Source: a plasmid
DNA length: 64,000 bases
Sequence record: CP132210.1
Reading direction: 5' to 3' (one strand)
A program made the position numbers and the translations under genes. Shown here piece by piece: positions 4,185 through 58,319 of the stretch. Position 1 is the stretch's first letter, and the number at the start of each line of letters is the position of its first letter. Under the pieces are notes generated by a model. It was given only the letters and a program-made list of their open reading frames with translations. It did no database searches and was not told the DNA's origin.

Positions 4185-4362
4185 AACAAGCGGCCATTGG
4201 CCGCTTTAAACTTTCACATGTGAAAGTTTTTCGCCCTTCTTTCCTACCCCGCACGAATAAACCTTATCGCGGTGCCCAAAATGGGCAGCAACAGCACTGT
4301 GCCAAGATTGTTCAATTAAGAGACGATTGCTCCGGGATAATGACAAGTTATTTGGAGGGTCT

Positions 4363-4506
4363 ATGTCCGCACATGCTCATGCCAGAGAAAGTGAAAGCTC
4401 ATCTGGTTCATTCGTCTCCTGGCAACTCCTTGTCTGGCAGGTGATGTTCGCTATCGGTGTCGTTGCTGGGGTTAACCTGGAACACACCTACAATTTTCTT
4501 GGTTAA
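4363..4506 (+). CDS. Possible 47-aa membrane peptide (below ORF-track cutoff)
   Basis: ATG at 4363 with GGAGGG RBS 5 nt upstream; encodes MSAHAHARESESSSGSFVSWQLLVWQVMFAIGVVAGVNLEHTYNFLG with one TM helix; ends just before RBS of 4519 gene. Confidence 0.3.
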   Translation: MSAHAHARESESSSGSFVSWQLLVWQVMFAIGVVAGVNLEHTYNFLG

Positions 4507-4518
4507 GGGGAGGGTGGT

Positions 4519-4866
4519 GTGAACGTAAATAAACAGTTTTTTTGGTTCCTGATGAATGCGGTACTGATGTGCATCTTCATCATTCCTGTAGCAGTCGCGT
4601 TTTGGTTGTCAGCTTTTGCGGCAGGTTTCGACTGGGGTCAGTGGGTTAACCTGGCTGCTGATGCAGCCAGCCGAGCTGCAAGTGACCCGGCCAAGGCTTT
4701 GGGAACGGTTCAGACCTACTGGGGCATCCTCAGTTTCTTCCTATTGGCTGCGTACAGTCTGCTGTTCAAGTTTAGAGCCAATGCCAACGAGTCAGTCGAG
4801 CTTGCTGCTGTGGTTGGCGTTTCGGCTTCGAGAAAAGACTCGGAAGCAACTCCTCAAAATCAATAA
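4519..4866 (+). CDS. Small T4SS membrane protein (GTG start)
   Basis: 115-aa ORF, GGGGAGGG RBS then GTG; two TM helices; followed by a rho-independent terminator. Confidence 0.5.
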   Translation: MNVNKQFFWFLMNAVLMCIFIIPVAVAFWLSAFAAGFDWGQWVNLAADAASRAASDPAKALGTVQTYWGILSFFLLAAYSLLFKFRANANESVELAAVVGVSASRKDSEATPQNQ

Positions 4867-4888
4867 CCGCTCCAGTAAACGCAAAAGA

Positions 4889-4911
4889 GGTGGCTCAGGC
4901 CGCCTTTTTTA
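4889..4911 (+). terminator. Rho-independent terminator
   Basis: GGTGGC-TCAG-GCCGCC stem (one G-U) followed by TTTTTT. Confidence 0.55.
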
Positions 4912-5008
4912 TTTGTCGCTGGAAGTGCCCGAAAAGGGCGCGAAGCCGTGGCAGAAAATCAGTGACCCTGAATGAAAATACAGGCCACAAGGAAAAAAGA
5001 GGGTTGCT

Positions 5009-5290
5009 ATGAAGCCTGTAAAGATACCGCGTCGGGTCGATGAGCCCCCGCATCTGCTGTTGTGGAGCGCAGATGAGCTGGCCCCGATGCTTTTGGGGCT
5101 AACGATAGGAGTCGTCATCGGTAAAGCTCTGGTCTGCTTTTTAGGGGGGTTGCTTGTAACCAACCTTTATCGCCGGTTCAGAGATAACCATCCGGATGGA
5201 TACCTGCTCCACATGATCTACTGGGCCGGGTTTATCGTGACCAAGGCCAAATCTCTCAAGAACCCGTTTGTCCGGAGGTATTTGCCTTGA
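5009..5290 (+). CDS. TraL/VirB3-like small membrane protein
   Basis: 93 aa, central TM hairpin, position ahead of TraE/K/B-like genes as in F-like and GI-type T4SS. Confidence 0.55.
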   Translation: MKPVKIPRRVDEPPHLLLWSADELAPMLLGLTIGVVIGKALVCFLGGLLVTNLYRRFRDNHPDGYLLHMIYWAGFIVTKAKSLKNPFVRRYLP

Positions 5291-5913
5291 ACCTGAAAAA
5301 GTATCTCAAGACCTGGGAAGGAACCCAAACAGAAAATAAGTGGGGTCGAATCTTCCAGGGTGGTCTTATCGTTATCGTTTTCCTGCTGGTGATCCAAGTA
5401 TTTAGCAAGGAAACCATCGTCACTCTCCAGCCTTTCACGCTTACGGAAGAAGCCTGGGTGACGAAAAGCAATGCCTCTCAGTCATACAAGGAGGCTTGGG
5501 CCTTCGCTTTTGCTCAGCTCCTTGGCAACGTGACTCCCGGAACCGTGGACTTTGTGAAGGAGCGGATCACCCCGCTACTCTCCCCGAGCATCTATCAGGA
5601 CGTGATTGATGCCATCGAAATTCAAGCTCAACAAATCAAGAACGACCGCGTAACTATGCGGTTCGAGCCTCGTTTTGTTGAGTACGAGCCCAAGAGCGAC
5701 AAAGTGTTTGTCTACGGATATTCCTATGTCAAGGGGGCTTCTTCTAATGAAGATCGTAGCGAACGCACCTATGAGTTCGCTCTCAAGATTTCAAACTACG
5801 CGCCAGTGCTGGACTACATCGAAACCTATGTGGGAAAGCCACGCACCAAAACTGTTTTGGAGCAACTCCAGCGTAAAGAAGAGAATCGGAGAAAGCATGA
5901 AGAGCAACGCTAA
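5287..5913 (+). CDS. TraE/VirB8-like protein
   Basis: 208 aa, single N-terminal TM then periplasmic domain; ATGA overlap with upstream gene; gene order TraL-E-K-B. Confidence 0.6.
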   Translation: MNLKKYLKTWEGTQTENKWGRIFQGGLIVIVFLLVIQVFSKETIVTLQPFTLTEEAWVTKSNASQSYKEAWAFAFAQLLGNVTPGTVDFVKERITPLLSPSIYQDVIDAIEIQAQQIKNDRVTMRFEPRFVEYEPKSDKVFVYGYSYVKGASSNEDRSERTYEFALKISNYAPVLDYIETYVGKPRTKTVLEQLQRKEENRRKHEEQR

Positions 5914-6814
5914 ACTTTCGCTCCTGGCGCTGTCCTTGGCGCTCGGAACATCACTGGCTTATGCCTCGGATGACATTCCTATTGTTCCGGCAAGCGTTAT
6001 GAAAAAAGACGTCCCAGCATATGTTTCGTCAGGGCAAGTCACAAATGAAGTAATGGGGAGTGTGAATGAAAACCCCGTGCTGACCATGAAGCCTGGAGTG
6101 AACCAAATAATCCCGATTGCAATTGGTCATCCGAATCGTGTGGTCACACCGTTTGGCAATCCGGAGATTGTATCCACTTCACTGACTGGAGGAACCGATG
6201 CCGGTCAATGTGGGGAAGTCTGTATCAAAGAAAACGTGGTCTATGTCGCTACGGATAAGCAATATCCCGTGACAATGTTCATTACAGAAAAAGGCTCAGA
6301 AGCTCAGGCGCTAAGCCTAACGATGGTTCCTCGTCGGATTCCACCGCGAGAAGTATTTCTCAGACTCGATGGGAATGTAGGAATCAGCGGCGCATTAGCT
6401 AACTCCAAGGCGGAGAGTTGGGAACAGAGTCAGCCTTATGTTGAAACGATTCGCTCGGTGTTTCGTAAGGTTGCCCTTGGTGAAATCCCCCAAGGTTACA
6501 CGATGAACCGTATCCCTACTGGAGCCGCAGTGCCTAGCTGTTCTCATCCGGGGATTAAGGTGGATTTCAGCAAGGGGCAATACATGATGGGCCACCACCT
6601 GAACGTCTTCATTGGCGTGGCCCAGAACGTTTCTAGTCAGCCCATCGAGTTCAAGGAGGCCTTGTGCGGAAGCTGGGATGTGGCTGCGGTGACTACATGG
6701 CCGCTTAACGTACTTGAACCAGGCCAGAAGACTGAACTGTATGTAGCGAAGAAGCAAATGCGTGGCATCTCGTCTACTTCTAAGCGCCCATCGCTGCTGG
6801 GGGGTGCCCAATGA
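5897..6814 (+). CDS. TraK/VirB9-like periplasmic/OM protein
   Basis: Start at ATG 5897 (MKSNAKLSLLALSLALGTSLAYA signal peptide) inside ORF 5675..6814; overlaps TraE-like stop. Confidence 0.6.
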   Translation: MKSNAKLSLLALSLALGTSLAYASDDIPIVPASVMKKDVPAYVSSGQVTNEVMGSVNENPVLTMKPGVNQIIPIAIGHPNRVVTPFGNPEIVSTSLTGGTDAGQCGEVCIKENVVYVATDKQYPVTMFITEKGSEAQALSLTMVPRRIPPREVFLRLDGNVGISGALANSKAESWEQSQPYVETIRSVFRKVALGEIPQGYTMNRIPTGAAVPSCSHPGIKVDFSKGQYMMGHHLNVFIGVAQNVSSQPIEFKEALCGSWDVAAVTTWPLNVLEPGQKTELYVAKKQMRGISSTSKRPSLLGGAQ

Positions 6815-8127
6815 TTAAGCAGTTTTGGACAGGATTAGATCCCAACAAAAAGCGGTGGGTTGCTATTTCTGGTGGCGTTTTCGTTCTTTTTACTGTCGTA
6901 ACAATCTTCTCTGGAGAATCGAAGCAAGAAGAGAAGCGCGGTCGGCAAGAAACTATCAAGCATGTCCTTACTGACAAAAATACCCGTGAGATCGGCATAG
7001 ATTCGCTTTCTGCCGATGTGAAAATGGTGTCTCGTGAAAATTCGGATCTGAAAAAGGAGCTGGAGAGAGTTAAAAGAGAGCTGGGGGAAACGAAGGAAAC
7101 TGCCGGTAAATCCAGCGATGTCGGTAGGGAGATTTCTCGCTTACGCCAAGACCTTGAGAGCTTGACGCAGAAAAATATTGAGCTTGCCAAGAAGGTTGAT
7201 AGCGGTGCTTCTGGTGGAAAAAAAGCTTCACCATCAGGGGATACCAGATCCGATGTCAATGGCACACCTGGCGGTGATGCTCAGTTCGTAGAGAAAAAGT
7301 TGGACTACAAAGACCCGGCATCTTTCTTCCGAGAAGCACCGCTCCCGGACTCGAAAGGTGGCGCTCCTGCAACTGGAAAAGGTGATGGCCGCGATGCCAC
7401 CAAGCCCGGCATCCAGATTGTGAGCTACTCACAGAAAACTCCAGAAGTTGATGTGAAAGAGGGAAAAGATGATGAGTCCCTCTACCTGCCATCAGGCTCG
7501 ATTATGACGGGTGTGCTTATCAATGGTATGGATGCGCCAACTTCCCAGGGAGCGAGGAGAGACCCATTCCCATCAACCCTTAGGATTCAAAAAGAAGCCA
7601 TATTGCCTAATCGTTTCCGTGCGGATGTCAGAGAGTGTTTCCTGATTGTTTCGGGCTATGGCGACCTTAGTTCTGAACGGGCATACCTACGTGGTGAGAC
7701 ATTTTCTTGTGTCAGGGAAGACGGAGGGGTGATTGAAGCAAGGCTTGACTCTTATGCGGTGGGTGAAGACGGAAAGGCAGGTGTTCGAGGCCGTGTTGTG
7801 TCGAAGCAAGGGCAAATTATCGCCAAGAGCCTGATGGCGGGATTCCTCGGTGGCGTGTCGGAGGCCTTTGATGTCAACCCTGTGCCTGTCGTTAACACCA
7901 ACCCAGGGTCAACTACACAGTATCAATCTGTGTTCTCTAACCAGATGTTGCAGGGGGCTGCCGTGAAGGGGGCGAGTAAAGCTCTGGATCGTATCGCTCA
8001 ATTCTATATCGACATGGCAGAGGGCATTTTCCCTGTAATAGAAGTCGATGCTGGCCGTCAGGTGGACATCATTGTGACAAAGGGAACCAATCTACAAATT
8101 CGTTCCACCGGGGGCGCTAAGAAATGA
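6811..8127 (+). CDS. TraB/VirB10-like protein
   Basis: 438 aa; N-terminal TM, coiled-coil/charged region, Gly/Pro-rich linker, C-terminal beta-domain; ATGA overlap. Confidence 0.65.
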   Translation: MIKQFWTGLDPNKKRWVAISGGVFVLFTVVTIFSGESKQEEKRGRQETIKHVLTDKNTREIGIDSLSADVKMVSRENSDLKKELERVKRELGETKETAGKSSDVGREISRLRQDLESLTQKNIELAKKVDSGASGGKKASPSGDTRSDVNGTPGGDAQFVEKKLDYKDPASFFREAPLPDSKGGAPATGKGDGRDATKPGIQIVSYSQKTPEVDVKEGKDDESLYLPSGSIMTGVLINGMDAPTSQGARRDPFPSTLRIQKEAILPNRFRADVRECFLIVSGYGDLSSERAYLRGETFSCVREDGGVIEARLDSYAVGEDGKAGVRGRVVSKQGQIIAKSLMAGFLGGVSEAFDVNPVPVVNTNPGSTTQYQSVFSNQMLQGAAVKGASKALDRIAQFYIDMAEGIFPVIEVDAGRQVDIIVTKGTNLQIRSTGGAKK

Positions 8128-12200: not shown

Positions 12201-14785
12201 TAACCCTCAGTGCAGACCGGGCGAAGAAAGAGGCCGCAAGCAAGGGGGCCGGGAGTGCCAGTAGAACCTGTCTGTTTGAGTGGCAGCAGATCCCTGATGG
12301 GTTGCTCCAGGAACAGCTATCGGAATCCCCTTCGCTTTCTGGTTCATTGGCCTCCAACGGCAATCATCCACTGGGATGGCGGGTAAGCATTTTCACCCGT
12401 AATGGTACACGGGTGACGTTGAACGACCAGACGTTCAACATCGAAGCTGTTGATCCACCAGCTCCGACTGTTGAACTGTCATCTAAATTCAACTTCAAAG
12501 ACAACATCTACATGGTGCCGATGACAGGTAACTACCTGGGGGATGCCATAATCAGCTCTGAACGCGCTGATCTGGATATTGCCATCTCGCGCAACTCTGG
12601 TGTCCTGGAGTCTGAAACTTTCGCTCCAGGATGGGGAGCCACCAATAAGGTGTATCGTCGCATAAATACTGATGAGCGAGCTTTGTGGGAGGAGACTACT
12701 TACAAGGTGAATGCGGCGTACAACAAGGTCCCTGATGTGAAAACGGAGGCGATCTATCGGGCTATCGCAGCACCTTCTGACAGCATCCGTCCTGTCGTTG
12801 AAGTTGATGGTGATAACGCGATTGACACTCAGGCATTGCCTGTTCGCGTCCTCATTCGTGATCAGTACAAACCTGATGGTGGTTATGACGCCAACACAAT
12901 GGGTGTGTGGAAAGTACGTCTGATTCAGCAAAAGGCCTACAACGAGACGGTTGCTCTCACTGATTATGCGGAAGCATCAAACGGAGAAGCTCAGTTCTCG
13001 GTCGATCTGTCTGGCGTGGATACTTCCTCTGTCCGCATAGCGGCTGAGGCTGTTTTGGACAGCCCCGTTGAAGGTTACAACAGAACAGAGCTGTCCATCA
13101 GGCCTGCTTTCTTAACTGTGCTTCGTGGTGGAGCCATCGCTGCTGGAGTAGAGGCTCGCAAGTTGTCTGGTGAAGCCCCGTTCACCGCTGTGTTCAAGCT
13201 GGCTCTGGATAACCGTCAAGATCTCCGTGCTACCGGCCAGGTGGTGTGGGAAACCACGAAGGATGACGGTAAAACTTGGGAGCAGTTCATCCCGGAAGAG
13301 CGTTACAAGTATCAGCTTGTGAAGACCTTCGACAAGGGGGAGTACCAGGTTCGAGCCAAAGTGGTGAACGTAAACTCAGGCGCGGAAAAATACACCGAAG
13401 CGGTCAGTGTTGTCGCTTACGACAAACCGGATATTGCTGTTGTCGGCCCGACCACGTTGTTTGTGGGAAGTGAAGGCAAGTACACGGCGAGTCTGGCGCT
13501 GAACGATGAGCCGATCACGGATGGCAATGCCGTTGTTGAGTGGTCCACTGACGGTGGAAAAACCTACTCACATAAAGGGAACAGCATCACGCTTTCAAGT
13601 GATGAAGAAACCCGATACCGCCTGTGGGCTCGTGTGCGTTCTGCTAATGCACCGGCTGATGACGACTATGCCTATGACGTTGCTAAAACGGCGGTTGACT
13701 TCCGAGCTGTGAAGGCACCCCGCCCTTATGTGGTAGGGCCTCAAGTCATTGAGACGGGCAAGAAGTATGTGTTCAGTGCCAAAACCAGCCTGCCTTACCG
13801 TGGTATGGACGTGAAGCTGAACGGGTTCTTCACGCTGCCTGATGGCTCGATTGTGGAGGGTGATACCGCTGAGTACGTGCCTTCGGACAATGACCTCAAC
13901 CAGGCAACTGTAGAAACGAAGTACACCACCTGGATCGAAGGATACCGCGATAAGGGTGCAGAAGCCTCGCATAGTCTACGCTCCCGCGTTTGGCAGTATG
14001 TGTGGCCGGGCTTCGCAATGCAGGTCCGGAAGAGCGCGGACGCGGCTCCTGCGACGATCACTGCGTCAGTACGGCCAATTGCCTTCAACGGTAAGCTGGA
14101 AGAGCCTACCTACGAATGGGAGTTGCCGGAAGGGGCCGTGATTCAGGATAAGAAGCAAGATATTGTCAGGTCCTTTGTGGTCAATGAGCCGGGCGATTAC
14201 AACATCAAGGTGACTGTTCGTGATGCTCGCGGGCATGAGGCTGTGATCGAGAAATCGTTCAAGATCGACCAGTCCAAGCCCTACGCCATTGACCTGCAAT
14301 ACTCTGGCTCGAATAAATACGAGCGTGAGCCTTTGGATGTACTGTTGAGACCGTACATTTCTGGCGGCCACCCACGCGACCGTATTTTGACTCATGTTTA
14401 CTCGGTCGATGGCACACCGTTGGAAAACAGCGGTTACTACGGCAAAGCAACTCTTCGCGCTGGTGAGCACAGCATCAAGCTGAAAATAACCTCAGAGATG
14501 GGGCATGAAGCTGAGGGTGAGGTGAGCATCAATGTGGCAGAGAACAAGTTGCCCGTGTGTAGCCTGAAATCACGAGAGACCGTTGGATCGTGGATCGTCT
14601 ATGCGAACTGCGAAGATACCGATGGACGCATGAAGTCCTACGAATGGACCATTGCCGGTGAGTTGAAGAGCATCAGCTCTGATCGAGTAACTATCAGCAA
14701 GGGACCCAATAAAACGATGCCGACCATATCTCTGGTTGGAGTCGATGACTCAGGTGGCAGATCCGAAGCTGTTACGATGAACTAA
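9299..14785 (+). CDS. Giant secreted repeat-domain protein (about 1828 aa), putative surface adhesin
   Basis: ORF 9263..14785; best start MINFKPK at 9299 after GGAGA RBS; signal peptide ending AHA-EL; T/S/G/V/D-rich beta-sandwich-like repeats along its length; own terminators on both sides. Confidence 0.7.
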   Translation: MINFKPKLPALLGALAVLTAGAAHAELLEYTFKAPDGAQRSLPPNANYANPTGNVSFALSAGIDRKVKVSVRRSDGTVVSTATSHLLGATDRITVGGKSYYGAELQLAAPAAGSYTIRAEILASDGSTVQSDDYPLTVDVTPPKYTSLAPVYGSYGQVISGDVWKLGTGGAEENAFLISGISDDSPVKEVKAKLYRQDGSLYKDVSVNYDDANKQARQYFESGFFPASDLDEVFTLQFQLSDSAGNSYLSPPQKVMFDNLTNAPSSPFGVYDPASSSTLGPGLSGFVAYKAGMTVKTNPIKLAWRVPRNNWHEYREGGINMVNSLGEMTKVGEDGNYVYLVTTAPYGNTDGNYWRWVNFGQWGGGVITYDLSLSPSAPQSPKLLGVDYNYSDIGWSNMYRYWVDSSVLPVTVSSIRVKVEPRPYVQTAVHRGSCEVPVGQDSCVIANSFTMSKGTTGYIHDNATVFNADQSLRSNPLWAEVNWNDQHYPQLSQQYDQNNKVFTLFVNQPGRGAYFDRLRLRSAWIEDSKGNKLSPTGGLIANNWENYTYQWDLKTLPEGQYSLVAAAEEMHGPLTRQPMFQITSDKTAPTLTISVADGAAIQTLDDVVITLADAIDPSPKLTSIALVGGPANDKVQLSWREESKGRFRLEYPVMFPSLKEGESYRLTVSGADAQGNAVKKVVGFEYKPRQVMLADGMDGKVMVPAVTHEFVHADGKRIIETKPLTLSDGAIVTGSYDVFATLRSDAKVPLVVNGVRIEPGQTMGIMSQHDFGASGGRLSIPVKPAIPDVVGSSSLLVMTSAPNSPILVVDINTWKGAAKLSAESWTIRQVIDPVKIYALPETGVPCRFTTKADVAMAADPIRDPVCLLQWDRTPDEAEQTTQDTNGMKVAGLVGQAVSIGEQPVEYSLYLFSGDGSKVKVGSGSQNLTVTTAYGSVGYTPIDDIAQVNRVIENFNVNLKQNKGPDCSITLSADRAKKEAASKGAGSASRTCLFEWQQIPDGLLQEQLSESPSLSGSLASNGNHPLGWRVSIFTRNGTRVTLNDQTFNIEAVDPPAPTVELSSKFNFKDNIYMVPMTGNYLGDAIISSERADLDIAISRNSGVLESETFAPGWGATNKVYRRINTDERALWEETTYKVNAAYNKVPDVKTEAIYRAIAAPSDSIRPVVEVDGDNAIDTQALPVRVLIRDQYKPDGGYDANTMGVWKVRLIQQKAYNETVALTDYAEASNGEAQFSVDLSGVDTSSVRIAAEAVLDSPVEGYNRTELSIRPAFLTVLRGGAIAAGVEARKLSGEAPFTAVFKLALDNRQDLRATGQVVWETTKDDGKTWEQFIPEERYKYQLVKTFDKGEYQVRAKVVNVNSGAEKYTEAVSVVAYDKPDIAVVGPTTLFVGSEGKYTASLALNDEPITDGNAVVEWSTDGGKTYSHKGNSITLSSDEETRYRLWARVRSANAPADDDYAYDVAKTAVDFRAVKAPRPYVVGPQVIETGKKYVFSAKTSLPYRGMDVKLNGFFTLPDGSIVEGDTAEYVPSDNDLNQATVETKYTTWIEGYRDKGAEASHSLRSRVWQYVWPGFAMQVRKSADAAPATITASVRPIAFNGKLEEPTYEWELPEGAVIQDKKQDIVRSFVVNEPGDYNIKVTVRDARGHEAVIEKSFKIDQSKPYAIDLQYSGSNKYEREPLDVLLRPYISGGHPRDRILTHVYSVDGTPLENSGYYGKATLRAGEHSIKLKITSEMGHEAEGEVSINVAENKLPVCSLKSRETVGSWIVYANCEDTDGRMKSYEWTIAGELKSISSDRVTISKGPNKTMPTISLVGVDDSGGRSEAVTMN

Positions 14786-14801
14786 GGTTCACACCTCTCA
14801 A

Positions 14802-14829
14802 AGCCCGGCTCAGTCCGGGCTTTTTTTTG
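14802..14829 (+). terminator. Rho-independent terminator
   Basis: AGCCCGG-CTCAGT-CCGGGCT stem then TTTTTTTT. Confidence 0.85.
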
Positions 14830-14933
14830 TATCGCGCTGGAGTTGTCCAAATTGGGCTATTACAGAGGCGAGTCTGTTTCCATCCCCCAGATAAACTGCC
14901 CAGCATCGAGTAATCCAATCTTAGGGGAGAGAC

Positions 14934-15641
14934 ATGCGGACAAAATTACTTGGGGCGCTGATGGTGTTCGGAATTATTACCGGCCCGGCTCATGCGTCGT
15001 CGAAATTGGAAATCACGGATCCCAGGGCTGCAAAGATAGAGGACATCGTAAAACTACCCATCAATGGGGTCCGGGCCGTCCAGAGTGATGGGCAAATCAT
15101 GTTCCTCTCTGAAAACGGGCGATTTGTTATTTCAGGACAAATCTACGACCTGTGGAGCAAGAAGCCACTCAATACGATGTCACAGATGCGAGATGTGGCG
15201 GAACGCCTTCACTTCAAGAGTATGGGGATGGACGTTGACACTCTGAATACCATTTCAATGGGGCGTGGGGGCAAAGAGGTCGTGGTTTTTGTTGATCCTC
15301 GCTGCACCGTCTGCCACAAGCTCATGGACGAATCAAAGTCTCTGGTCGATGAGTACACCTTCAAATTTGTCGTGATCCCTGCCCTTGGGGCTGAGTCCAA
15401 CCGCCTTGCAAAAGGCTTGTACTGCGCGAAAGACAAAACAAACGCGCTCGATGCGTTCATGAACAACACCCTGGCTTCGCTTCCTTCAAAAGAAACCTGT
15501 GACCCCGCTCAATATGACCAAACGCTGCTCACGGCCCACTTCATTGGGATTGAAGGCGTTCCGTTCGTAGTTGCTCCGGATGGCCGCGTCAGCAAAGGGC
15601 GTCCGAAGAACCTGAAATCATGGTTGGAGAGTGCTGAATGA
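14934..15641 (+). CDS. DsbC/DsbG-like thiol:disulfide interchange protein (T4SS-associated)
   Basis: Signal peptide, CTVC thioredoxin-fold active-site motif, 235 aa. Confidence 0.75.
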   Translation: MRTKLLGALMVFGIITGPAHASSKLEITDPRAAKIEDIVKLPINGVRAVQSDGQIMFLSENGRFVISGQIYDLWSKKPLNTMSQMRDVAERLHFKSMGMDVDTLNTISMGRGGKEVVVFVDPRCTVCHKLMDESKSLVDEYTFKFVVIPALGAESNRLAKGLYCAKDKTNALDAFMNNTLASLPSKETCDPAQYDQTLLTAHFIGIEGVPFVVAPDGRVSKGRPKNLKSWLESAE

Positions 15642-18085
15642 TCATAACCATCAAAAAGAAACTCGAAGAAACGTTGATCCCGGAGCACTTGCGAGCAGCC
15701 GGGATTATTCCTGTCTTGGCCTATGACGAAGACGATCATGTCTTCCTTATGGATGACCAAAGTGTAGGCTTTGGTTTCATGTGTGAGCCCCTGTGCGGTG
15801 CCGATGAGAAAGTGCAGGAGCGAATGAATGGCTTCCTGAATCAGGAATTTCCGTCGAAGACTTCGCTCCAGTTTGTTCTGTTCCGCTCACCGGACATTAA
15901 TCAGGAGATGTACCGGATGATGGGGTTGCGTGATGGTTTTCGTCACGAACTGCTGACATCTGTCATCAAGGAACGAATCAACTTCCTCCAGCACCACACG
16001 ACAGATCGCATCTTTGCTAAGACCAGCAAAGGTATCTACGACAATGGCTTGATACAAGACCTCAAACTGTTCGTTACGTGCAAAGTACCTATAAAGAACA
16101 ACAACCCGACGGAGAGCGAACTCCAGCATCTCGCACAAATCCGCACGAAGGTCGAGTCATCGCTTCAAACTGTTGGCCTGCGTCCCCGAACAATGACGGC
16201 GGTGAACTACATCCGGATCATGAGCACCATACTGAATTGGGGGCCGGATGCTTCATGGCGACATGACTCTGTGGATTGGGAGATGGATAAGCCTATCTGC
16301 GAGCAAATCTTCGATTACGGCACCGACGTGGAAGTCAGTAAGAACGGCATCAGGCTGGGTGACTATCACGCGAAAGTGATGTCCGCTAAAAAGCTACCTG
16401 ATGTTTTCTATTTTGGTGATGCGTTGACCTATGCAGGGGATCTCAGCGGAGGTAACTCCAGCATCAAAGAAAACTACATGGTTGTGACCAATGTATTTTT
16501 CCCTGAGGCCGAAAGCACGAAAAATACTCTGGAGCGCAAACGCCAGTTCACTGTAAACCAAGCCTACGGGCCAATGCTCAAATTCGTGCCGGTGTTGGCG
16601 GACAAAAAGGAGAGTTTCGACACTCTCTATGAGTCCATGAAAGAGGGGGCCAAGCCAGTCAAGATCACCTACTCGGTGGTTTTATTTGCCCCAACCAAAG
16701 AACGTGTTGAAGCGGCAGCGATGGCCGCACGAAACATCTGGCGTGAGTCTCGGTTTGAACTTATGGAGGATAAGTTCGTTGCTCTGCCAATGTTCCTCAA
16801 CTGCCTGCCATTCTGTACCGACCGAGATGCAGTACGAGACCTATTCCGCTACAAGACCATGACAACCGAACAGGCGGCTGTGGTCCTGCCAGTGTTTGGG
16901 GAGTGGAAGGGGACCGGGACCTATCATGCGGCGCTGATTTCCCGCAACGGCCAGCTCATGAGTCTGTCTCTTCACGACAGTAATACCAACAAGAACCTTG
17001 TGATCGCAGCCGAATCGGGCTCGGGTAAATCCTTCCTTACCAACGAACTGATTTTTTCCTATCTGTCTGAGGGGGCCCAAGTCTGGGTCATTGATGCTGG
17101 GAAGTCTTATCAGAAGTTGTCGGAAATGCTCAATGGCGACTTCGTTCACTTTGAAGAAGGAACGCACGTCTGCCTCAACCCGTTCGAGCTCATACAGAAC
17201 TACGATGACGAAGAAGACGCGATTGTCAGCCTCGTTTGTGCAATGGCCTCGGCCAAGGGCTTGCTGGATGAATGGCAAATCTCTGCGCTGAAACAGGTCC
17301 TTTCTCGTCTGTGGGAAGAGAAAGGTAAAGAGATGAAGGTTGACGACATCGCTGAGCGCTGCCTGGAGGAAGAAAACGATCAGCGCCTCAAGGATATTGG
17401 TCAGCAGCTCTACGCCTTTACATCGAAGGGGAGCTACGGGAAATACTTCTCTCAAAAGAACAACGTCAGCTTCCAGAACCAGTTCACTGTACTGGAGCTC
17501 GATGAATTGCAAGGACGTAAACACCTGCGTCAGGTTGTTCTCCTCCAGCTCATCTACCAGATCCAGCAAGAAGTCTTCCTGGGTGAACGAAACCGCAAAA
17601 AGGTCGTCATCGTGGATGAAGCATGGGACTTGCTCAAAGAAGGTGAAGTTTCCACGTTTATGGAACACGCCTACCGTAAGTTTCGTAAATATGGTGGCTC
17701 CGTTGTTATTGCAACTCAGTCCATCAACGACCTCTATGAAAACGCCGTGGGTCGTGCCATAGCGGAGAACTCGGCCAGCATGTACTTGCTCGGCCAAACC
17801 GAAGAAACAGTTGAATCTGTTAAGCGCAGCGGTCGTCTGACCCTTTCAGATGGCGGGTTCCACACCCTTAAAACCGTACACACCATCCAAGGCGTGTACT
17901 CAGAAATCTTTATCAAATCGAAGAGCGGTATGGGCGTCGGGCGTTTGATCGTGGGCGACTTCCAGAAGCTGCTTTATTCGACTGACCCGGTGGACGTCAA
18001 CGCCATCGACCAATTTGTGAAACAAGGCATGAGCATCCCTGAGGCTATCAAGGCTGTGATGCGAAGCCGTAAACAGGCTGCATAA
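15638..18085 (+). CDS. traC: Conjugative transfer ATPase TraC/VirB4-like
   Basis: 815 aa, Walker A AAESGSGKS, Walker B VVIVDEAWD; ATGA overlap with DsbC-like gene. Confidence 0.85.
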   Translation: MIITIKKKLEETLIPEHLRAAGIIPVLAYDEDDHVFLMDDQSVGFGFMCEPLCGADEKVQERMNGFLNQEFPSKTSLQFVLFRSPDINQEMYRMMGLRDGFRHELLTSVIKERINFLQHHTTDRIFAKTSKGIYDNGLIQDLKLFVTCKVPIKNNNPTESELQHLAQIRTKVESSLQTVGLRPRTMTAVNYIRIMSTILNWGPDASWRHDSVDWEMDKPICEQIFDYGTDVEVSKNGIRLGDYHAKVMSAKKLPDVFYFGDALTYAGDLSGGNSSIKENYMVVTNVFFPEAESTKNTLERKRQFTVNQAYGPMLKFVPVLADKKESFDTLYESMKEGAKPVKITYSVVLFAPTKERVEAAAMAARNIWRESRFELMEDKFVALPMFLNCLPFCTDRDAVRDLFRYKTMTTEQAAVVLPVFGEWKGTGTYHAALISRNGQLMSLSLHDSNTNKNLVIAAESGSGKSFLTNELIFSYLSEGAQVWVIDAGKSYQKLSEMLNGDFVHFEEGTHVCLNPFELIQNYDDEEDAIVSLVCAMASAKGLLDEWQISALKQVLSRLWEEKGKEMKVDDIAERCLEEENDQRLKDIGQQLYAFTSKGSYGKYFSQKNNVSFQNQFTVLELDELQGRKHLRQVVLLQLIYQIQQEVFLGERNRKKVVIVDEAWDLLKEGEVSTFMEHAYRKFRKYGGSVVIATQSINDLYENAVGRAIAENSASMYLLGQTEETVESVKRSGRLTLSDGGFHTLKTVHTIQGVYSEIFIKSKSGMGVGRLIVGDFQKLLYSTDPVDVNAIDQFVKQGMSIPEAIKAVMRSRKQAA

Positions 18086-21892: not shown

Positions 21893-21985
21893 ATTTCAAG
21901 ATGTATGTTTTACGCAGAGTGCCCAAAATGGGCCACTAGGCATACTAACGTGGATTTCTCTCTGGGGTAGCATCTGAGTGTCAGA

Positions 21986-24774: not shown

Positions 24775-25635
24775 TCATGCTTCTGGGTAAACAAATAACT
24801 CAGCCTTTCCCTGACCAAGAAGGTAAGGGAACCCAACTTTGTCGCCACTCTCCAGTTCCACTGATTTTGGAGCAAGGTAAAGATAGGACCAAGCTGGTAG
24901 CTGTTTGCTAATAGCGGCGTAGATCGCTTGCTGAGGAGCATGGCTTGCTGTTCCATTGCCGACTTTCACAAAGTTGTAGTCAGTCTCATGTCCTGATGTG
25001 AAGGCATACGCTGTGCCTTGGACACCAGAGACAAAATCAGGCGCGGTCCCAATGCGAGGCTCCACGATATTTACTTTGACTGAACACATGTCAGCCACCT
25101 TACTTTGTCCGTTCACCCACGTAGGGCAACCCCATTCGTTCTTGTAGAACTGATAGGTGAGACGACCGTCTTTGTCATACAGAAGTGTGAAATTCGCACC
25201 CAAGTCAGTCAGAGCTGACTCGATGGAAACTTTCACATGTGAAAGAAGTTTGCCCTGAGCATCTGCCGGTGACGCAGCTTCTTTAGCAGGCATCCAGGCG
25301 ATCAAGCTATTGCGAGCTCCGTGCTGTTTAGGACCGATGGCCCAGTTGGCAAGGTTGACTAAGCCACCTTGCCAGTCGGTCATACCAACCTGAGGGGACA
25401 TATAGCCAGACAGCACGTAGGCAGCACCAAACGTTTTGGTGTCGGTCAAGCGTTCCAGCTTGTCACGCGGAACCGAAGCGTCTTGAATGCCTGTTACCAG
25501 GCCACCGGCCTCTGCGATGTTGTAAGCGCGACTGTGATTGGTTTTGTACGCTGCGGGTTCGTAACTACTGGTGGATGCACAGCCAGACAGAGCTGCTACA
25601 ACTAGAGCCACAGTGGTGATTGAAGCATGTTTCAT
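24775..25635 (-). CDS. Lipoprotein, unknown function
   Basis: 286 aa; LSGC lipobox after hydrophobic N-terminus. Confidence 0.6.
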   Translation of the reverse strand: MKHASITTVALVVAALSGCASTSSYEPAAYKTNHSRAYNIAEAGGLVTGIQDASVPRDKLERLTDTKTFGAAYVLSGYMSPQVGMTDWQGGLVNLANWAIGPKQHGARNSLIAWMPAKEAASPADAQGKLLSHVKVSIESALTDLGANFTLLYDKDGRLTYQFYKNEWGCPTWVNGQSKVADMCSVKVNIVEPRIGTAPDFVSGVQGTAYAFTSGHETDYNFVKVGNGTASHAPQQAIYAAISKQLPAWSYLYLAPKSVELESGDKVGFPYLLGQGKAELFVYPEA

Positions 25636-37661: not shown

Positions 37662-38546
37662 ATGTTCAAATCATCAGTATGCTCCTACGAAAATAGGGGG
37701 CCTTACGGAAACAACAAGTACCGAGGCAATTGCTCTGGCTTCATCATAAAAGACTTTGTTGAGTCCTACATGAGGAGGCCGAATGGGCTGGTGGCAGACC
37801 CCAGTGTTGGGGGCGGCTCAAGCATCGACGTTGCCAATGAACTTGGAATCCGTTTCAAAGGGACAGACTTGCATCAGGGTTTCAATCTGTTGCGGGATGA
37901 CTTCCTTTCGTTCCTCGGAGAGCCTGCACACCTTATCTGGTGGCACCCTCCTTACTGGGACATGATCCAGTATTCAGGTAAACAGTGGGGAGAACCCAAC
38001 AAATGGGACATGAGCCGCATGAGTTTGCCTGAGTTCGTTGAAGCCCTTGAGTTGGCTGTTATGAACATTCATGACGCTTGTGAGCAAGGGGGACATTACG
38101 GAATCCTCATGGGGAACCTGAGGCGCGATGGGGATTACTTCAACCTGTCCAGCCTTGTGGAACGTATCGCACCTGGAAAGCTGGTGGATGAAATCATCAA
38201 AACACAGCACAACTGTGTGAGTGATCGAACTCAGTATTCCGGGAAGCTAGTGCGCATCGCCCATGAGAAGCTGTTGGTGTTTCGTCGTAACGACGTTGCC
38301 TCATCGCTCTGTCTTCTTGCTGCCGTACACCGCCGATCAACCAACATGGTTTCGACTACGTGGAAAGCTGCAATACGCCGAACCCTACAGGGGAAAACGT
38401 TGAAGCTGGAGCAGATTTACAAAGAGATTGAACCCTACGCAAAGCATCGAGAGAACAACCACTGGCAAGCAAAGGTCAGGCAAGTTCTTCAAGATGCCAG
38501 GTTCTTTAGTCGCATCGAGGTAGGTGCCTATGCACTTGCTGAGTAG
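37662..38546 (+). CDS. Orphan DNA N6-adenine/N4-cytosine methyltransferase
   Basis: Motif I ADPSVGGGSS (FxGxG-like) followed by motif IV WWHPPY (D/N/S-PPY); no adjacent restriction gene. Confidence 0.6.
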   Translation: MFKSSVCSYENRGPYGNNKYRGNCSGFIIKDFVESYMRRPNGLVADPSVGGGSSIDVANELGIRFKGTDLHQGFNLLRDDFLSFLGEPAHLIWWHPPYWDMIQYSGKQWGEPNKWDMSRMSLPEFVEALELAVMNIHDACEQGGHYGILMGNLRRDGDYFNLSSLVERIAPGKLVDEIIKTQHNCVSDRTQYSGKLVRIAHEKLLVFRRNDVASSLCLLAAVHRRSTNMVSTTWKAAIRRTLQGKTLKLEQIYKEIEPYAKHRENNHWQAKVRQVLQDARFFSRIEVGAYALAE

Positions 38547-38611
38547 CCCAACCGGGGCGTGACATCCCGGAGGGGATTGGTCGCGCTCATTAACATCAAA
38601 GGAGCGTGACC

Positions 38612-40324: not shown

Positions 40325-40678
40325 ATGAACGCAGTGAAGATGATTCAGAAGGGAAACCAGCTAGAGCTGCCACTTTTCTTCTTGGATGAAGAGCCGAAAA
40401 CCGCAGAAGTAATTCCATTTGAGCCAAAGCCCGCATGGAATGATGATGAGGTAAGGTTGTTACGTGATGGGCTTTTATGGCATAGCCTTAGAGTCCTTGC
40501 TGATGGACGAGCTGGGAGTGAAATCAAGCAGGAAACTATGACTTGGGTGATGTCCGATGAGGTGCATCCATTCTCATTTGTGGTCTGCTGCGATGAAGCC
40601 GGTTACGATCCATCTGGAGTCAGGGAAGGCGTAAAGTCTATCCTAAAACGCTTAGCGCGGATTAAAGCGGGGGGTTAA
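40325..40678 (+). CDS. Hypothetical protein
   Basis: Start ATG 40325 in ORF 40286..40678; 117 aa. Confidence 0.45.
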   Translation: MNAVKMIQKGNQLELPLFFLDEEPKTAEVIPFEPKPAWNDDEVRLLRDGLLWHSLRVLADGRAGSEIKQETMTWVMSDEVHPFSFVVCCDEAGYDPSGVREGVKSILKRLARIKAGG

Positions 40679-40732
40679 CCCCCTGCTTTCCCAGCGACAT
40701 CGACTTTCACATGTGAAAGTTTTGTGCCCCTC

Positions 40733-40800
40733 GGAAAGCAAGATTTTGCTCTCTGACGAGAGTGAAAAGTGAGGTAGCTGGCCTCCCCAAACAAACAGTA
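40733..40800 (+). promoter_or_regulatory. Conserved operon-head regulatory repeat, copy E (diverged)
   Basis: AGATTTTGCTCTCTGACGAGAGTGAAAAGTGAGGTAGCTGGCCTCCCCAAACAAACAGTA. Confidence 0.45.
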
Positions 40801-40870
40801 TTCAACATAACCCTTGGGGATCACCGCCCCTTGGGCAGGTGGTTCCCTGAAAAAACATGGAGCCACAACT

Positions 40871-41215
40871 ATGACTACTCTTGCCAACTTTGCGAACCCG
40901 ATTTCTGTTATTCAACGCTCTCCAACCAGTGGGGTGTTTGGCTCAAATCAGTTCGTAGGAGACAAAGAGGGATTTGTACAAAAGGTGATCGGAAAGTGGT
41001 ACTGCACTCCAGGGAATACCATTCCTGTTGAGAGCATGTCCCACCTGGAGCAGGCGGAGAAACTCTATGACTTCTACGTCAAGTATCTCCAAGTAAAAGA
41101 AAAGACCTCTGTGAACCTTGGCCTGGTGCTGCACAAGCTGTACAGCACCGGTTCTATCCAGGAAGCAGAGATCGCTCTTGAAGCAATAAAAACTCAAGCT
41201 GGCGTCACGGCTTGA
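40871..41215 (+). CDS. Hypothetical protein
   Basis: Start ATG 40871 in ORF 40814..41215; 114 aa. Confidence 0.45.
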   Translation: MTTLANFANPISVIQRSPTSGVFGSNQFVGDKEGFVQKVIGKWYCTPGNTIPVESMSHLEQAEKLYDFYVKYLQVKEKTSVNLGLVLHKLYSTGSIQEAEIALEAIKTQAGVTA

Positions 41216-50093: not shown

Positions 50094-50480
50094 ATGAACC
50101 AAGTAGCTAAATTGGACCTCGCCCAAATCCGTCAACAAGCCATCAATGATGGACTGCTGGTGGACCAATCCTCCATCGGCACACAAGCTGGTTTCCTGAC
50201 CAATGTGGCAGTGACCCCAGCCATTGTCGATGGAGTATTTGGTGCGGATGGTAAGCACTCGGCAGAAGACTTCCTTCTCATGTTTTTGCAGCTTTGTGTT
50301 GCCCAAACAAAGGTCGCTTTTACCGACAACAAGAACTGGGGAAAGATTCGCCTCTATTACCCCATGCCCACTGTAAATGGCTTTTTCAAACCCACTGAGG
50401 TTGTGATTAAGTCAGACCCTGTAACCGCAGATGTCACAATCATGATGGCCTCAGAAGAGGGCACCCATTTGTGTTTGTGA
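50094..50480 (+). CDS. Hypothetical protein
   Basis: 128 aa; AGGTGTACCC / GAGTACACCT SD hairpin upstream. Confidence 0.45.
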   Translation: MNQVAKLDLAQIRQQAINDGLLVDQSSIGTQAGFLTNVAVTPAIVDGVFGADGKHSAEDFLLMFLQLCVAQTKVAFTDNKNWGKIRLYYPMPTVNGFFKPTEVVIKSDPVTADVTIMMASEEGTHLCL

Positions 50481-53966: not shown

Positions 53967-54336
53967 TGAAAAATTGAGCAATAGGATGAAACTATATTTT
54001 CATCTGAATGGGATGAACGATACCATCGCTTCAATGTAAGGATGATAGTTTACACTCGAATGGGAACCCAAAGTCGCCACTATTGGCGGCTTTTGTCTAT
54101 ATGTGGGATGTAACTTTATTTCCATCCCACAGGTCAAGCTGGCGACGTCTATCCGGCAGAACCATTGGCGGGGGGGGAGGGGCGTTTGATCCGGGCCTAC
54201 CACCTATCAGGGGATGCTAAATAGACAGTCACCAAGGTTGCATTTTAAAATCCCGTGATAGCATCTAAATGAACCCTATCGAACAGGGGTGCTGGCGGCG
54301 ATGCCGACCACTATCCCAGCAACGGAGAAATTTGCC

Positions 54337-55062: not shown

Positions 55063-55117
55063 TGTATTGACCTGGAGCGGGGATATTCACGATATATTTA
55101 AAAGGGAATCAAGGGAA

Positions 55118-55570: not shown

Positions 55571-55575
55571 ATAAT

Positions 55576-55604
55576 AAAAAGGAGCCTAACTGGCTCCTTT
55601 TTTA
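55576..55604. terminator. Bidirectional terminator
   Basis: AAAAAGGAGCC-TAACT-GGCTCCTTTTTT between convergent genes. Confidence 0.75.
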
Positions 55605-56188
55605 ATGGGGATAATATTGCTTTCATGGATGTTATTTTCACTCGGGATGTGTAACGTTGAAAATGGGGTTCCAAAAAGAGAGTGATCACACAGCTCCCCA
55701 TAATAAATAAGCGACAAGATTTCTTGTTCATTTATTTTACCCACCTTGGAGAGGTAGTTAATTATTGCTGTATCCAGCAAGTCGTGACACCCATTAAGCA
55801 AGTCCACGATACTGGCCGCAGCCTCATTTTCCTCTTCGTCATCTCGACCGGCCAATACCAATTCAAGCCAAGCCTCAAGGCTAGGATGTCCTTCGGCAAG
55901 CTGTATTTGACGGCACTCATTCTCGATCAACTTAGTGATTGCTTCGTTGAGGGTTCCGCCATAAGTCGGCATGTTTAGAACGACACCGAATCCGGGGATT
56001 TCTTTTTGGATTGGCTTTGCATCCTTGGGGGCTGATTTAAGCCATAGAAAAAACCAGATCCCGGAGCTTATGTCTTCTGGCTTGACCTGGTTGGCCGCAA
56101 GGAACTTGGAAACCTCGTTACAGATGATGCCATGTGGTGCGGCCATCTCGTAAATACCCGCCATCAGCTCTTCAAGGCTCTTATACAT
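55586..56188 (-). CDS. Hypothetical protein
   Basis: 200-aa ORF on minus strand; acidic patch DDEEENE. Confidence 0.5.
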   Translation of the reverse strand: MYKSLEELMAGIYEMAAPHGIICNEVSKFLAANQVKPEDISSGIWFFLWLKSAPKDAKPIQKEIPGFGVVLNMPTYGGTLNEAITKLIENECRQIQLAEGHPSLEAWLELVLAGRDDEEENEAAASIVDLLNGCHDLLDTAIINYLSKVGKINEQEILSLIYYGELCDHSLFGTPFSTLHIPSENNIHESNIIPIKKGAS

Positions 56189-56294
56189 ATTATTTCTCGC
56201 ACCCGCACATTATGTATTTCACTATCGCTGTTATGCCGACCCCTCGCAAGTATGTTCCAGCGCGACAATATACCAATTTGCTACAACACCCCAA

Positions 56295-56330
56295 ATTACC
56301 GTATTACGGTAATTATGATGATTACCGTAA
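56295..56330. promoter_or_regulatory. Operator-like site: palindrome ATTACCGTATTACGGTAAT plus third half-site ATTACCGTAA
   Basis: Lies in divergent promoter region between 55586..56188(-) and 56449..56730(+). Confidence 0.5.
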
Positions 56331-56448
56331 ATCTGGCGCGATCTCTGTGTGATTGCCTCTACTTATTAAAATGACGCTTTGAAAAAGTAGTGTTTTTGAA
56401 ATAGGATAGGTGGTAGCGAATACCCACTTTTTACGAGGAGCGCGATCA

Positions 56449-56730
56449 GTGATTTTTGATGTAAGAGCGACCTTCGAGATAGCACTCCAGACGGACACCA
56501 ACCTGATACTTATCGATCTGGATCAAGGAGCATCAGTTACGAGCGATGCTGATGCGGTGATCTCCTGGTTGGCCGCAAACCTCGAAGGTGGAATTGGAAA
56601 GCGTAAGGTTTACTACCGGGATACCGACGGACGCTTTGATGAGCTCAAGGTTAATGCCGGTGCATTCGTCGGTTTCGCACCTTGTAGCGAAGGCCAGCAG
56701 ACCGCCTTTTCTAAGATGCTAGGTCAGTAA
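56449..56730 (+). CDS. Hypothetical protein (GTG start)
   Basis: GAGGAG RBS 8 nt before GTG 56449 in ORF 56410..56730. Confidence 0.4.
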   Translation: MIFDVRATFEIALQTDTNLILIDLDQGASVTSDADAVISWLAANLEGGIGKRKVYYRDTDGRFDELKVNAGAFVGFAPCSEGQQTAFSKMLGQ

Positions 56731-56748
56731 CCCTGAGTGGAGAACTCG

Positions 56749-57312
56749 ATGCCAAACGAAAACAAATTGTGGGAGAGGCCCACGAAAAATGTCATCTTCA
56801 TCAGCCAGTCTGAGGCCGAAAGGCTGGAGCCAGTAGCCGGTGCGGCCATGATCTCCATAACTGATCCTGATAAGTCCCCTGCCACTCTCGGTCCGTGGGA
56901 GCTGCTGTACCGCGATAGCTTCTATGATGGCGGCTATTCTGAGAGCACTATCCACACGATGAAGGCTGCGTTCCGGATGAATTACGCCTCCTATATCGAC
57001 TCTTCTCAGGCTGAAAGGCTGTCCACCTTCCTGGATGGATTGGCTGGTAGTGGTATCGATCAGATCTTCGTTCATTGCTATTACGGCGAATCAAGAAGTG
57101 GCGCGATAGCGCTGTACCTCCAGAACAAACATGGATTCACCCCGAACAAGCCAATCACCAAGCCCAACCGAACAGTTTACGAGTTGCTGTGCAACCCAGC
57201 CAAGTTTGAACCGCTGATACAAAGCTACGAAACGCAAGATATAGAGGAGGATCCACCTCTCCACCTCAAAATATGGGATTTGCTTCTCGTTGCGGTGGGG
57301 CTTAGGAGGTAA
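56749..57312 (+). CDS. Dual-specificity/tyrosine phosphatase-like protein
   Basis: CX5R P-loop VHCYYGESRSGA; ATG 56749 after GGAG. Confidence 0.6.
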   Translation: MPNENKLWERPTKNVIFISQSEAERLEPVAGAAMISITDPDKSPATLGPWELLYRDSFYDGGYSESTIHTMKAAFRMNYASYIDSSQAERLSTFLDGLAGSGIDQIFVHCYYGESRSGAIALYLQNKHGFTPNKPITKPNRTVYELLCNPAKFEPLIQSYETQDIEEDPPLHLKIWDLLLVAVGLRR

Positions 57313-57314
57313 CT

Positions 57315-58319
57315 TTGCACGATACGAACAACGACCGAGAAGGCTCGCTTTCACATGTGAAAGCGAGCGTTCCGTCAGAACAAACCGTCCGCAGTGAACT
57401 GCTGCCGTCATCGAGCTCGCTCCGAAACATCCAGGACAACCCTGCCGTCGCCTATCTGATGAGTCTCGGGTCAAAGCGAAGCAGGCAGACAATGGGGTCA
57501 TTCCTCAACATTGTCGCCAAGATGATCGGGTTTCAGAACCTTCGTGACTGTGCCTGGAGCTCAATGAGGCGGCATCATGTCCAAGCTGTGATCCAAATAC
57601 TCAGCGACTCTGACCGCGCTCCAGCCACGATCAATACCTACTTGGCTGCACTGAAAGGAGTTGCCCTGGAAGCGTGGACAATGAAGCAGATTGATACCGA
57701 CAGTTACCAGCATATCAAGCAGGTGCGTTCGGTGAGGGGCTCTCGCTTACCCAACGGGCGAGCCCTCGAAAAGCACGAGGTCAGAGCCCTTTATTTCACA
57801 TGTGAAAACGATCGGAGCTCCAAAGGGTTGCGTGACGCAGCCATCCTTGCTGTTTTAGTCGGGTGCGGGCTTCGGCGCTCGGAGGTTGTCGCCCTCAATA
57901 TGGAATGCGTCATCACCAGGGAGCAGGCGCTTCGGGTGCTGGGTAAGGGTAACAAAGAGCGCATCGCTTATGTGCCTGACGGGGCTTGGCAGCGGCTTAT
58001 GCGTTGGGTGAATGAGGTTCGTGGTGAGCAGCCCGGAGCTCTGTTTCAGCGGATCAGGCGGTTTGATGATGTCACCGCCGACAGAATGACGGACCAGGCT
58101 ATCTATCACATTCTTGAAACCAGGAGAATTGAGGCAGGGTTGGAAAAATTCGCTCCACATGATCTTCGCCGAACCTTTGCATCGGCCATGCTGGACAATG
58201 GTGAGGACATCATCACGGTCAAGGATGCGATGGGCCATGCCAGTGTCACGACCACGCAGAAGTATGATCGCCGGGGAGATGAGCGCTTGAAACAGGCCAG
58301 TCGGCGTCTCGAATTCTGA
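57315..58319 (+). CDS. Tyrosine site-specific recombinase (phage integrase family)
   Basis: R..HDLRRTFAS..GHASVTTTQKY catalytic boxes; starts 3 nt after phosphatase-like gene. Confidence 0.85.
   Translation: MHDTNNDREGSLSHVKASVPSEQTVRSELLPSSSSLRNIQDNPAVAYLMSLGSKRSRQTMGSFLNIVAKMIGFQNLRDCAWSSMRRHHVQAVIQILSDSDRAPATINTYLAALKGVALEAWTMKQIDTDSYQHIKQVRSVRGSRLPNGRALEKHEVRALYFTCENDRSSKGLRDAAILAVLVGCGLRRSEVVALNMECVITREQALRVLGKGNKERIAYVPDGAWQRLMRWVNEVRGEQPGALFQRIRRFDDVTADRMTDQAIYHILETRRIEAGLEKFAPHDLRRTFASAMLDNGEDIITVKDAMGHASVTTTQKYDRRGDERLKQASRRLEF

Follow-up and report, generated by a model that had tools for sequence, protein, structure and literature searches.

The closest described counterpart of the repeat considered here belongs to the partition system of the IncC and IncA multidrug-resistance plasmids. 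Murányi, Szabó, Acsai and Kiss (2024, Nucleic Acids Research 52:2498, PMC10954446), whose paper was the only one returned by a full-text literature search for the 14-mer TTTCACATGTGAAA, identified this motif as the IncC/IncA parS. On the IncC plasmid R55 they described 14 inverted repeats that all contain the same 14-bp core, with AAAC/GTTT flanks; the repeats are spread over the backbone, one being at the parA promoter (PparA) and four within open reading frames (ORFs), including R55_91 and xerC, and they reported 10-14 copies per IncA plasmid. Purified ParB specifically shifts three such IncC/SGI1 sites in electrophoretic mobility shift assays (EMSA), with unusually highly shifted complexes; a 4-bp insertion in the repeat's centre abolishes ParB binding, so the spacing of the half-sites is critical, and the 14-bp core by itself is left unbound. 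The same study showed that parS sites cause dose-dependent centromere incompatibility, that stabilisation of a replicon with parS requires the supply of both ParA and ParB, and that expression of the parAB053 operon represses PparA, from which the authors conclude that ParB is an autorepressor. It also listed four AcaCD-dependent promoters with a nearby parS and reported that mutation of the parS beside an AcaCD box in SGI1 affects copy number (PMC10954446); our literature search turned up no later work on ParB, parS and AcaCD together. Here we report on a stretch of 64,000 nucleotides from a plasmid (sequence record CP132210.1; the whole stretch is referred to as the window), in which the same motif occurs five times within the palindrome CTTTCACATGTGAAAG or as its core. 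We conclude with high confidence that these five copies belong to the parS centromere sites that are dispersed over an IncA-type conjugative plasmid. Since the system has already been published (PMC10954446), the parS identity of the motif is not new, and the present analysis adds only its confirmation for IncA and a few comparative details.

The window had previously been annotated from its letters and open reading frames (the sequence-only reading), and the palindrome had been picked out as a candidate centromere site. When we re-scanned the window, the perfect 16-mer was found at 4211-4226, 25230-25245, 40704-40719 and 57348-57363, and a fifth match, to the 14-bp core only, at 57794-57807, exactly as had been described; no extra copies were found in the 64,000 nucleotides when up to two mismatches were allowed. 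The claim that the copies exceed chance also holds: dinucleotide-preserving shuffles gave a mean of 0.05 matches and none of 100 shuffles reached five, so chance does not explain the repeat. The extents of the palindromes had to be revised, as two copies were said to extend to 20 bp and the perfect palindromes in fact cover 22 bp (4208-4229), 16 bp (25230-25245), 18 bp (40703-40720), 26 bp (57343-57368, GCTCGCTTTCACATGTGAAAGCGAGC) and 14 bp (57794-57807). The core itself is exact in all five copies. Outside it, ParB binding requires the outer arms, above all a G at +1 and a T at +2 on one side (PMC10954446); this GT is present at 4208-4229 and 40703-40720, its G alone at 25230 (GA) and 57343 (GC), and neither base at 57794 (A/A). 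Similarity between the copies stops at about 22 bp, which makes them short sites, with no larger repeat unit around them.

The window is 100% identical to positions 32797-96796 of pEco15-1 (NZ_CP047711.1, 152,546 bp) and to many conjugative plasmids of ~145 kb from Citrobacter, Klebsiella, Enterobacter and E. coli, and shares ~88% DNA identity with IncC plasmids. The backbone of pEco15-1 is of the IncA/C family, with RepA, MobI, the MobH relaxase, TraD, F-like tra genes, Bet/Exo recombination genes, FlhC/FlhD-like AcaCD, an H-NS-like protein and StbA, and its resistance region is of the VIM-1/SHV-12 type. Because of these backbone genes the element is an IncA-type plasmid, and not the integrative and conjugative element (ICE) that the sequence-only reading had taken it to be. 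That reading had recognised no ParB gene in the window and had placed the cognate ParB elsewhere on the element. This proved correct: a parA-parB-053 operon lies outside the window, ~16 kb upstream of its start, and consists (in plasmid coordinates) of parA (14444-15229), parB (15233-16411) and 053, a gene for a 90-aa winged-helix protein of the helix-turn-helix (HTH) type (16460-16732). A copy of the core at plasmid 14381-14394 lies directly behind a TACAAT box, with its end 49 bp upstream of the parA ATG, and a further core follows the operon at 17790. Counted over the rest of the element, as had been proposed, the core is present in 12 exact copies, 10 of them as the exact 16-mer; all 12 are in the backbone and none is in the 27% of the plasmid that is accessory DNA (resistance region and insertion sequences), a placement with P of about 0.02 if the cores were positioned at random. 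Four of the 12 sites are intragenic. The ParB protein has ParB_N, HTH_ParB and KorB domains and contains the boxes GERRWRA and ENIQR, which are CTP-binding motifs of ParB clamps; its nearest solved relative is RK2 KorB (8qa8; E = 1.6e-20 over ~155 residues), followed by Noc and Spo0J. The proposal that the palindromes are ParB-binding parS sites is thus upheld, the plasmid having both a cognate operon and a motif that is the published IncC parS (PMC10954446).

To compare the sites with those of IncC we used pMS6198A, and site names of R55 were taken from PMC10954446 and assigned by position. The ParB of the present plasmid is 91% identical to that of pMS6198A, and residues 1-230, which comprise the ParB_N, HTH and KorB domains, agree at 225 positions, the differences being clustered in an acidic linker. 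As the DNA-binding domains are near-identical, the published specificity should transfer to the IncA plasmid. pMS6198A contains 13 exact cores and one with a single mismatch, and positional orthologues were found there for 11 of the 12 IncA sites. In these 11 pairs, 153 of 154 core positions agree, compared to 13.1% divergence in the surrounding ±150 bp (binomial P = 1e-8); judged from these alignments, the motif is under purifying selection.

The association of site and ParB extends to more distant genomes. A scan with the 16-mer, in which each species was represented by one genome and which gives neither a total nor an enrichment figure, listed at least 120 stretches, and by our own arithmetic ~140 chance matches to a 16-mer are expected in 596 Gb. 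Among the stretches listed, 54 carry homologues of IncA/C backbone genes and 66 do not, and the latter number is consistent with the expected chance matches. The 16-mer is present in many Gammaproteobacteria, among them Photorhabdus, Edwardsiella, Vibrio, Marinomonas, Shewanella, Marinobacter and Idiomarina. Five of the stretches listed, from Photorhabdus, Edwardsiella, Vibrio and Marinomonas, encode homologues of both ParB (52-86% identity) and 053, and four of these also parA; in the four parA-bearing relatives the core follows closely on a -10-like box and precedes parA by 36-54 bp, and the segment FVSTHLSLLK of the ParB HTH region is invariant in all ParB homologues of the five loci. The motif having been kept at the parA promoter and this segment having remained unchanged, ParB and its site travel together. 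IncA/C-like backbones with homologues of parAB-053, TraD, TraN, MobH and AcaC and with the same core were seen in stretches L020, L033, L035, L040, L044 and others, from Photorhabdus, Edwardsiella, Vibrio, Marinomonas, Shewanella, Marinobacter, Marinobacterium and Idiomarina, and the parS/ParB family therefore reaches well beyond the clinical IncA/IncC plasmids. Within E. coli, a 30-mer around the site at 4211 has matches in 144 of 5,426 complete genomes, the same number as contain an IncA/C backbone, and the matches fall in 2,906 plasmid places versus 118 chromosomal ones (96% plasmid; each palindrome is counted on both strands). The extended site, for which this search sees matches of ~20 bp or more, is therefore not a generic host repeat, whereas the sequence-only reading had named such a repeat as the outcome that would refute its proposal.

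The five sites of the window differ in their settings (Table 1). The earlier assignment of the copies at 4211 and 40704 to intergenic DNA, of that at 25230 to a lipoprotein gene and of the remaining two to a tyrosine recombinase gene is confirmed. It had also been stated that the intragenic copies are read in different frames; this is true of the copy at 57794, but those at 25230 and 57348 are in the same phase. The site at 4208 lies between the ORF at 3522-4184 and small ORFs ahead of traL (at 4363 and 4519). Just before it, a GC-rich hairpin (4179-4197) ends the upstream operon, and 48 bp downstream of the end of its core there is a box of the AcaCD type, GCCCAAAATGGGC, at 4274-4286. Its orthologue in pMS6198A, at 50192, is identical at 21 of 22 positions versus 83% in the flanks, and from its position upstream of traL it appears to be the published R55_55/vcrx036 site. 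The site at 25230, in a gene whose product has the lipobox LSGC, is flanked by AAAC on the left and by GAAG on the right, a flank that retains the G but lacks the T; its orthologue in pMS6198A, at 75735, is likewise identical at 21 of 22 positions, and the site is probably the published intragenic R55_91 site, a match made by position only. The third site, at 40703, is found between ORFs 40325-40678 and 40871-41215 and is also preceded by a GC-rich hairpin (40663-40683). pMS6198A is without the region that holds it, and the IncC vcrx068-promoter site listed in PMC10954446 may be its counterpart.

Table 1. Copies of the parS motif in the window (positions are those of the window).
Feature	Position	Strand	Description
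parS, full consensus	4208..4229	.	22-bp perfect palindrome AAACTTTCACATGTGAAAGTTT, AAAC-TTTCACATGTGAAA-GTTT
parS in lipoprotein gene	25230..25245	.	host gene on minus strand, 24775-25635; read as LSHVK
parS, 18-bp perfect palindrome	40703..40720	.	right flank GTTTT
parS core in 26-bp perfect palindrome	57343..57368	.	GCTCGC-TTTCACATGTGAAA-GCGAGC; recombinase codons 10-18
bare 14-bp core	57794..57807	.	in tyrosine recombinase gene; read as FTCE; flanks A/A versus C/G

The two remaining sites are both carried by the annotated tyrosine recombinase ORF (57315-58319), and they show how the motif has changed between the lineages. At 57343 the flanks are CGC/GCG and not AAC/GTT, the C/G at ±8, and with it the G at +1, being kept and the T at +2 lost, and the orthologue in pMS6198A has a mismatch in the core (TTTCACATGCGAAA). 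At 57794 the core is conserved at 14 of 14 positions compared with pMS6198A (orthologue at 119098, right flank GT), whereas the surrounding DNA is only 69% identical. The cores thus form a conserved pair 445 bp apart, with counterparts at about 18653 and 19098 in L007, the pMS6198A stretch. In IncA the upstream member is perfect and part of the 26-bp palindrome and the downstream member is without the C/G flanks, whereas in IncC the upstream member has the core mismatch and the downstream member the GT flank. From this comparison, the functional member of the pair seems to have been swapped between the IncA and IncC lineages, which would represent a turnover of sites. In the present plasmid the copy at 57794 is probably weak, decayed or non-functional, because the bare core was not bound in the published EMSA and its flanks here are A/A at ±8. 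Overall, we predict that occupancy by ParB is likely at 4208, 40703 and 25230, plausible at 57343 and doubtful at 57794.

Taken together with the published work, these observations are consistent with the following mode of action. The functional unit is the site of ~22 bp and not the bare 14-bp core, and a symmetric dimer of ParB would recognise the inverted repeat AAAC-TTTCACATGTGAAA-GTTT. ParB would presumably load at parS as a CTP-dependent sliding clamp, as the GERRWRA and ENIQR boxes suggest, and higher-order ParB complexes would form on parS, the resulting ParB-parS complexes being the cargo that the Walker ATPase ParA would segregate at cell division. Bound to the copy overlapping the -10 region of PparA, ParB would in addition repress its own operon. 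We tentatively propose a further role, which we regard as possible but on balance improbable: a KorB-like ParB clamp, loaded 35-62 bp upstream of AcaCD boxes (for example at 4208, upstream of the traL operon region), might damp or time the AcaCD-activated transfer operons. This idea is drawn from the layout of the AcaCD-side sites and the KorB domain of ParB. If it is true, a ParB clamp at these sites would couple partition with conjugation, a crosstalk between partition and transfer that was raised as an idea in PMC10954446.

The explanation that competes most seriously with a centromere is that the sites are mainly operators of a KorB-like global repressor, either ParB itself or another plasmid regulator, with partition being secondary. 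The sequence-only reading had listed a global-regulator box among its alternatives, and part of that idea stands, since ParB is reported to repress PparA via the site (PMC10954446), but it does not conflict with a parS function, operator and centromere roles being compatible. Several features speak for the operator explanation: the KorB domain of ParB and its closest solved relative, RK2 KorB; the position of one site just downstream of the -10-like box of PparA, whose repression has been attributed to ParB (PMC10954446); and the fact that three of the 12 sites, including that at 4208, have a strict GCCC-N5-GGGC box of the AcaCD type 35-62 bp downstream, the same layout having been described at four AcaCD promoters together with the SGI1 copy-number effect (PMC10954446). 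In the window such boxes occur at 4274-4286, 4927-4939, 21921-21933 and 38546-38558, and the whole plasmid has 8 versus 3.4 in shuffles; their assignment to AcaCD is by resemblance to AcaCD/SetCD activator boxes and by the statement in PMC10954446. However, demonstrated regulation is confined to PparA, the four intragenic sites are far from promoters, and partition has been shown directly, by ParA/ParB-dependent stabilisation and by centromere incompatibility (PMC10954446). We therefore consider a predominantly regulatory function rather unlikely, albeit a real contender. The other alternative raised by the sequence-only reading, that the palindromes are binding or recombination sites of the plasmid tyrosine recombinase, fares much worse and is in our view highly improbable. 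It draws on the two copies inside the recombinase gene, whose positions are conserved between IncA and IncC, and on an unrelated inverted repeat containing CACATG that follows the gene. The latter is present as had been described: a perfect 12+12 inverted repeat at 58335-58359, CTTAATCATGTG-G-CACATGATTAAG, begins 16 bp past the recombinase stop codon, but it has only CACATG in common with parS. An Xer-type core site consists of two arms of ~11 bp around a spacer of 6-8 bp and usually occurs once per replicon. The motif here has a centre of 2 bp and 12 dispersed copies, and twelve recombination sites on one replicon would give deletions and inversions. Moreover, the ten copies outside the recombinase gene are scattered round the plasmid and include that at the par promoter, distant genomes have the motif together with parAB-053 homologues, and purified ParB binds the sites specifically (PMC10954446), all of which speaks against recombination sites.

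Two further explanations were weighed. Were the palindromes terminator or attenuator hairpins acting at the RNA level, or a generic mobile repeat of the host of the repetitive extragenic palindrome (REP) or miniature inverted-repeat transposable element (MITE) type, one would point to the sites at 4208 and 40703, which lie between operons and are followed by a T run, and to the 26-bp palindrome at 57343-57368, for which an RNA hairpin of -22.3 kcal/mol is predicted. Most of the hairpins, however, are weak (-1 to -9 kcal/mol); the stems of the intergenic sites are AT-rich, at -4 to -9 kcal/mol, and do not have the make-up of intrinsic terminators, in which a GC-rich stem precedes a T tract. A terminator scan found no terminator-like sites at 4100-4560 or 40560-40900, promoter and terminator consensus scans round the two intergenic copies found nothing, and separate GC-rich hairpins are already present upstream of both copies. 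Rfam and tRNA scans of the window gave nothing relevant. A mobile repeat is further opposed by the end of similarity at ~22 bp, with no larger repeat unit, and by the occurrence of the extended site in so few E. coli genomes and there largely in plasmids. We regard this explanation as very unlikely, with one possible exception in the form of an extra RNA-hairpin role for the 26-bp palindrome. A DNA methyltransferase target, or a restriction-avoidance signature, centred on ACATGT/CATG is hardly credible either, although the motif contains ACATGT and the plasmid encodes two cytosine methyltransferases as well as N6-methylase-like proteins. Methyltransferase recognition sites are far shorter than a palindrome of 14-22 bp, and an invariant palindrome of this length is too long for such a site; of 34 ACATGT in the plasmid only 12 lie within the full 14-bp context that is conserved, and ParB binding accounts for this conservation.

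Some observations weigh against the parS assignment, or against its extension to every copy. The sites at 57343 and 25230 are without the T at +2 that is conserved in 15 of the 16 published sites, and the former is embedded in a much longer GC-rich palindrome and could have another role. The copy at 57794 possibly does not work, its flanks being A/A and the bare core having remained unbound in the published EMSA. The E. coli search sees matches of ~20 bp or more and misses isolated 16-mers. Finally, the binding data come from IncC, and the link to IncA is made through the 91% identity of ParB and the identity of the motif. Even so, we hold it very probable that the five copies are parS sites of the IncA-type plasmid.

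IncA and IncC plasmids play a major part as carriers of carbapenemase genes, the present one having VIM-1, and their stable inheritance depends on the ParABS system. Since SGI1-type genomic islands copy the parS motif, with which they hijack partition and expel the helper plasmid, its presence in raw sequence flags both IncA/C-family backbones and their parasites. The chromosome of E. coli ET300 (NZ_CP100973.1, 242169-254191; L128) contains an island adjoining dinQ/arsR, with an XerC-like integrase and a 1,374-aa ATP-binding protein, that has two consensus parS sites (AAAACTTTCACATGTGAAAGTTTT; cores at 156-169 and 6005-6018 of the stretch, 5.8 kb apart), and this island may be another IncA/C-parasitic island with parS mimics. 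A contig of a Marinobacter sp. metagenome-assembled genome (L068) contains four 16-mers within 4 kb (2143, 4210, 5379 and 6071), and no homologue of the IncA backbone ORFs was detected in this stretch; other multi-copy stretches without backbone matches include L012, L036 and L086. Elsewhere in the window, at 58569-58693, there are four related palindromic boxes of ~18-20 bp (ATAACCTCTATAGAGGTTAT, TAACCCTTGCGGGGGTTA, TTAACCCCTGTAGGGGATA and ATAACCTCTAAAGGGGGTAA) directly upstream of a small HTH gene that precedes a HipA-family toxin gene, and these boxes look like HipB-type operators.

Among known systems, the parAB-053 system of IncC/IncA (PMC10954446) has the same invariant core TTTCACATGTGAAA, and its AAAC/GTTT flanks recur at some of the copies (with GT at 4208-4229 and 40703-40720). 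The number of copies, 12, is within the 10-14 reported for IncA, and their scatter also agrees, with one at PparA, some beside AcaCD boxes and others within lipoprotein-like and xerC-like genes; the ParB is 91% identical. The differences lie in the IncA-type backbone, at ~88% DNA identity to IncC, in the xerC pair, whose strong and weak members are swapped, and in the site at 40703, which is in a region lacking from pMS6198A. KorB of the IncP-1 plasmid RK2/RP4 is likewise a protein of the ParB family with a KorB domain, accompanied by a short ParA, and it likewise acts at ~12 short palindromic sites dispersed round the plasmid, for which a dual role as centromere and operator has been demonstrated. 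The KorB operator OB is the 13-bp sequence TTTAGC(G/C)GCTAAA. The sequence of the IncA parS differs from it, the sequence similarity between the two proteins is limited, and only for KorB are a KorA partner and global regulation on record. Chromosomal parS, the 16-bp site of Spo0J/ParB (TGTTNCACGTGAAACA), is also palindromic and often intragenic, has nearly the same half-site (TTTCAC/GTGAAA) and is bound by proteins that likewise have ParB_N and HTH domains and a GERRxRA box. However, its half-sites abut at CG, whereas those of IncA are parted by two extra central bases, AT, and its outer positions are G/C where the IncA plasmid has C/G; the chromosomal core TTTCACGTGAAA occurs neither in the window nor in the whole plasmid. 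The parS mimics of the SGI1 family of integrative mobilizable elements (DR1/DR2) share the 22-bp consensus and are bound by the plasmid ParB, but it is a parasite of the plasmid that carries them and uses them to hijack partition and expel its helper, whereas the copies in the window are the plasmid's own.

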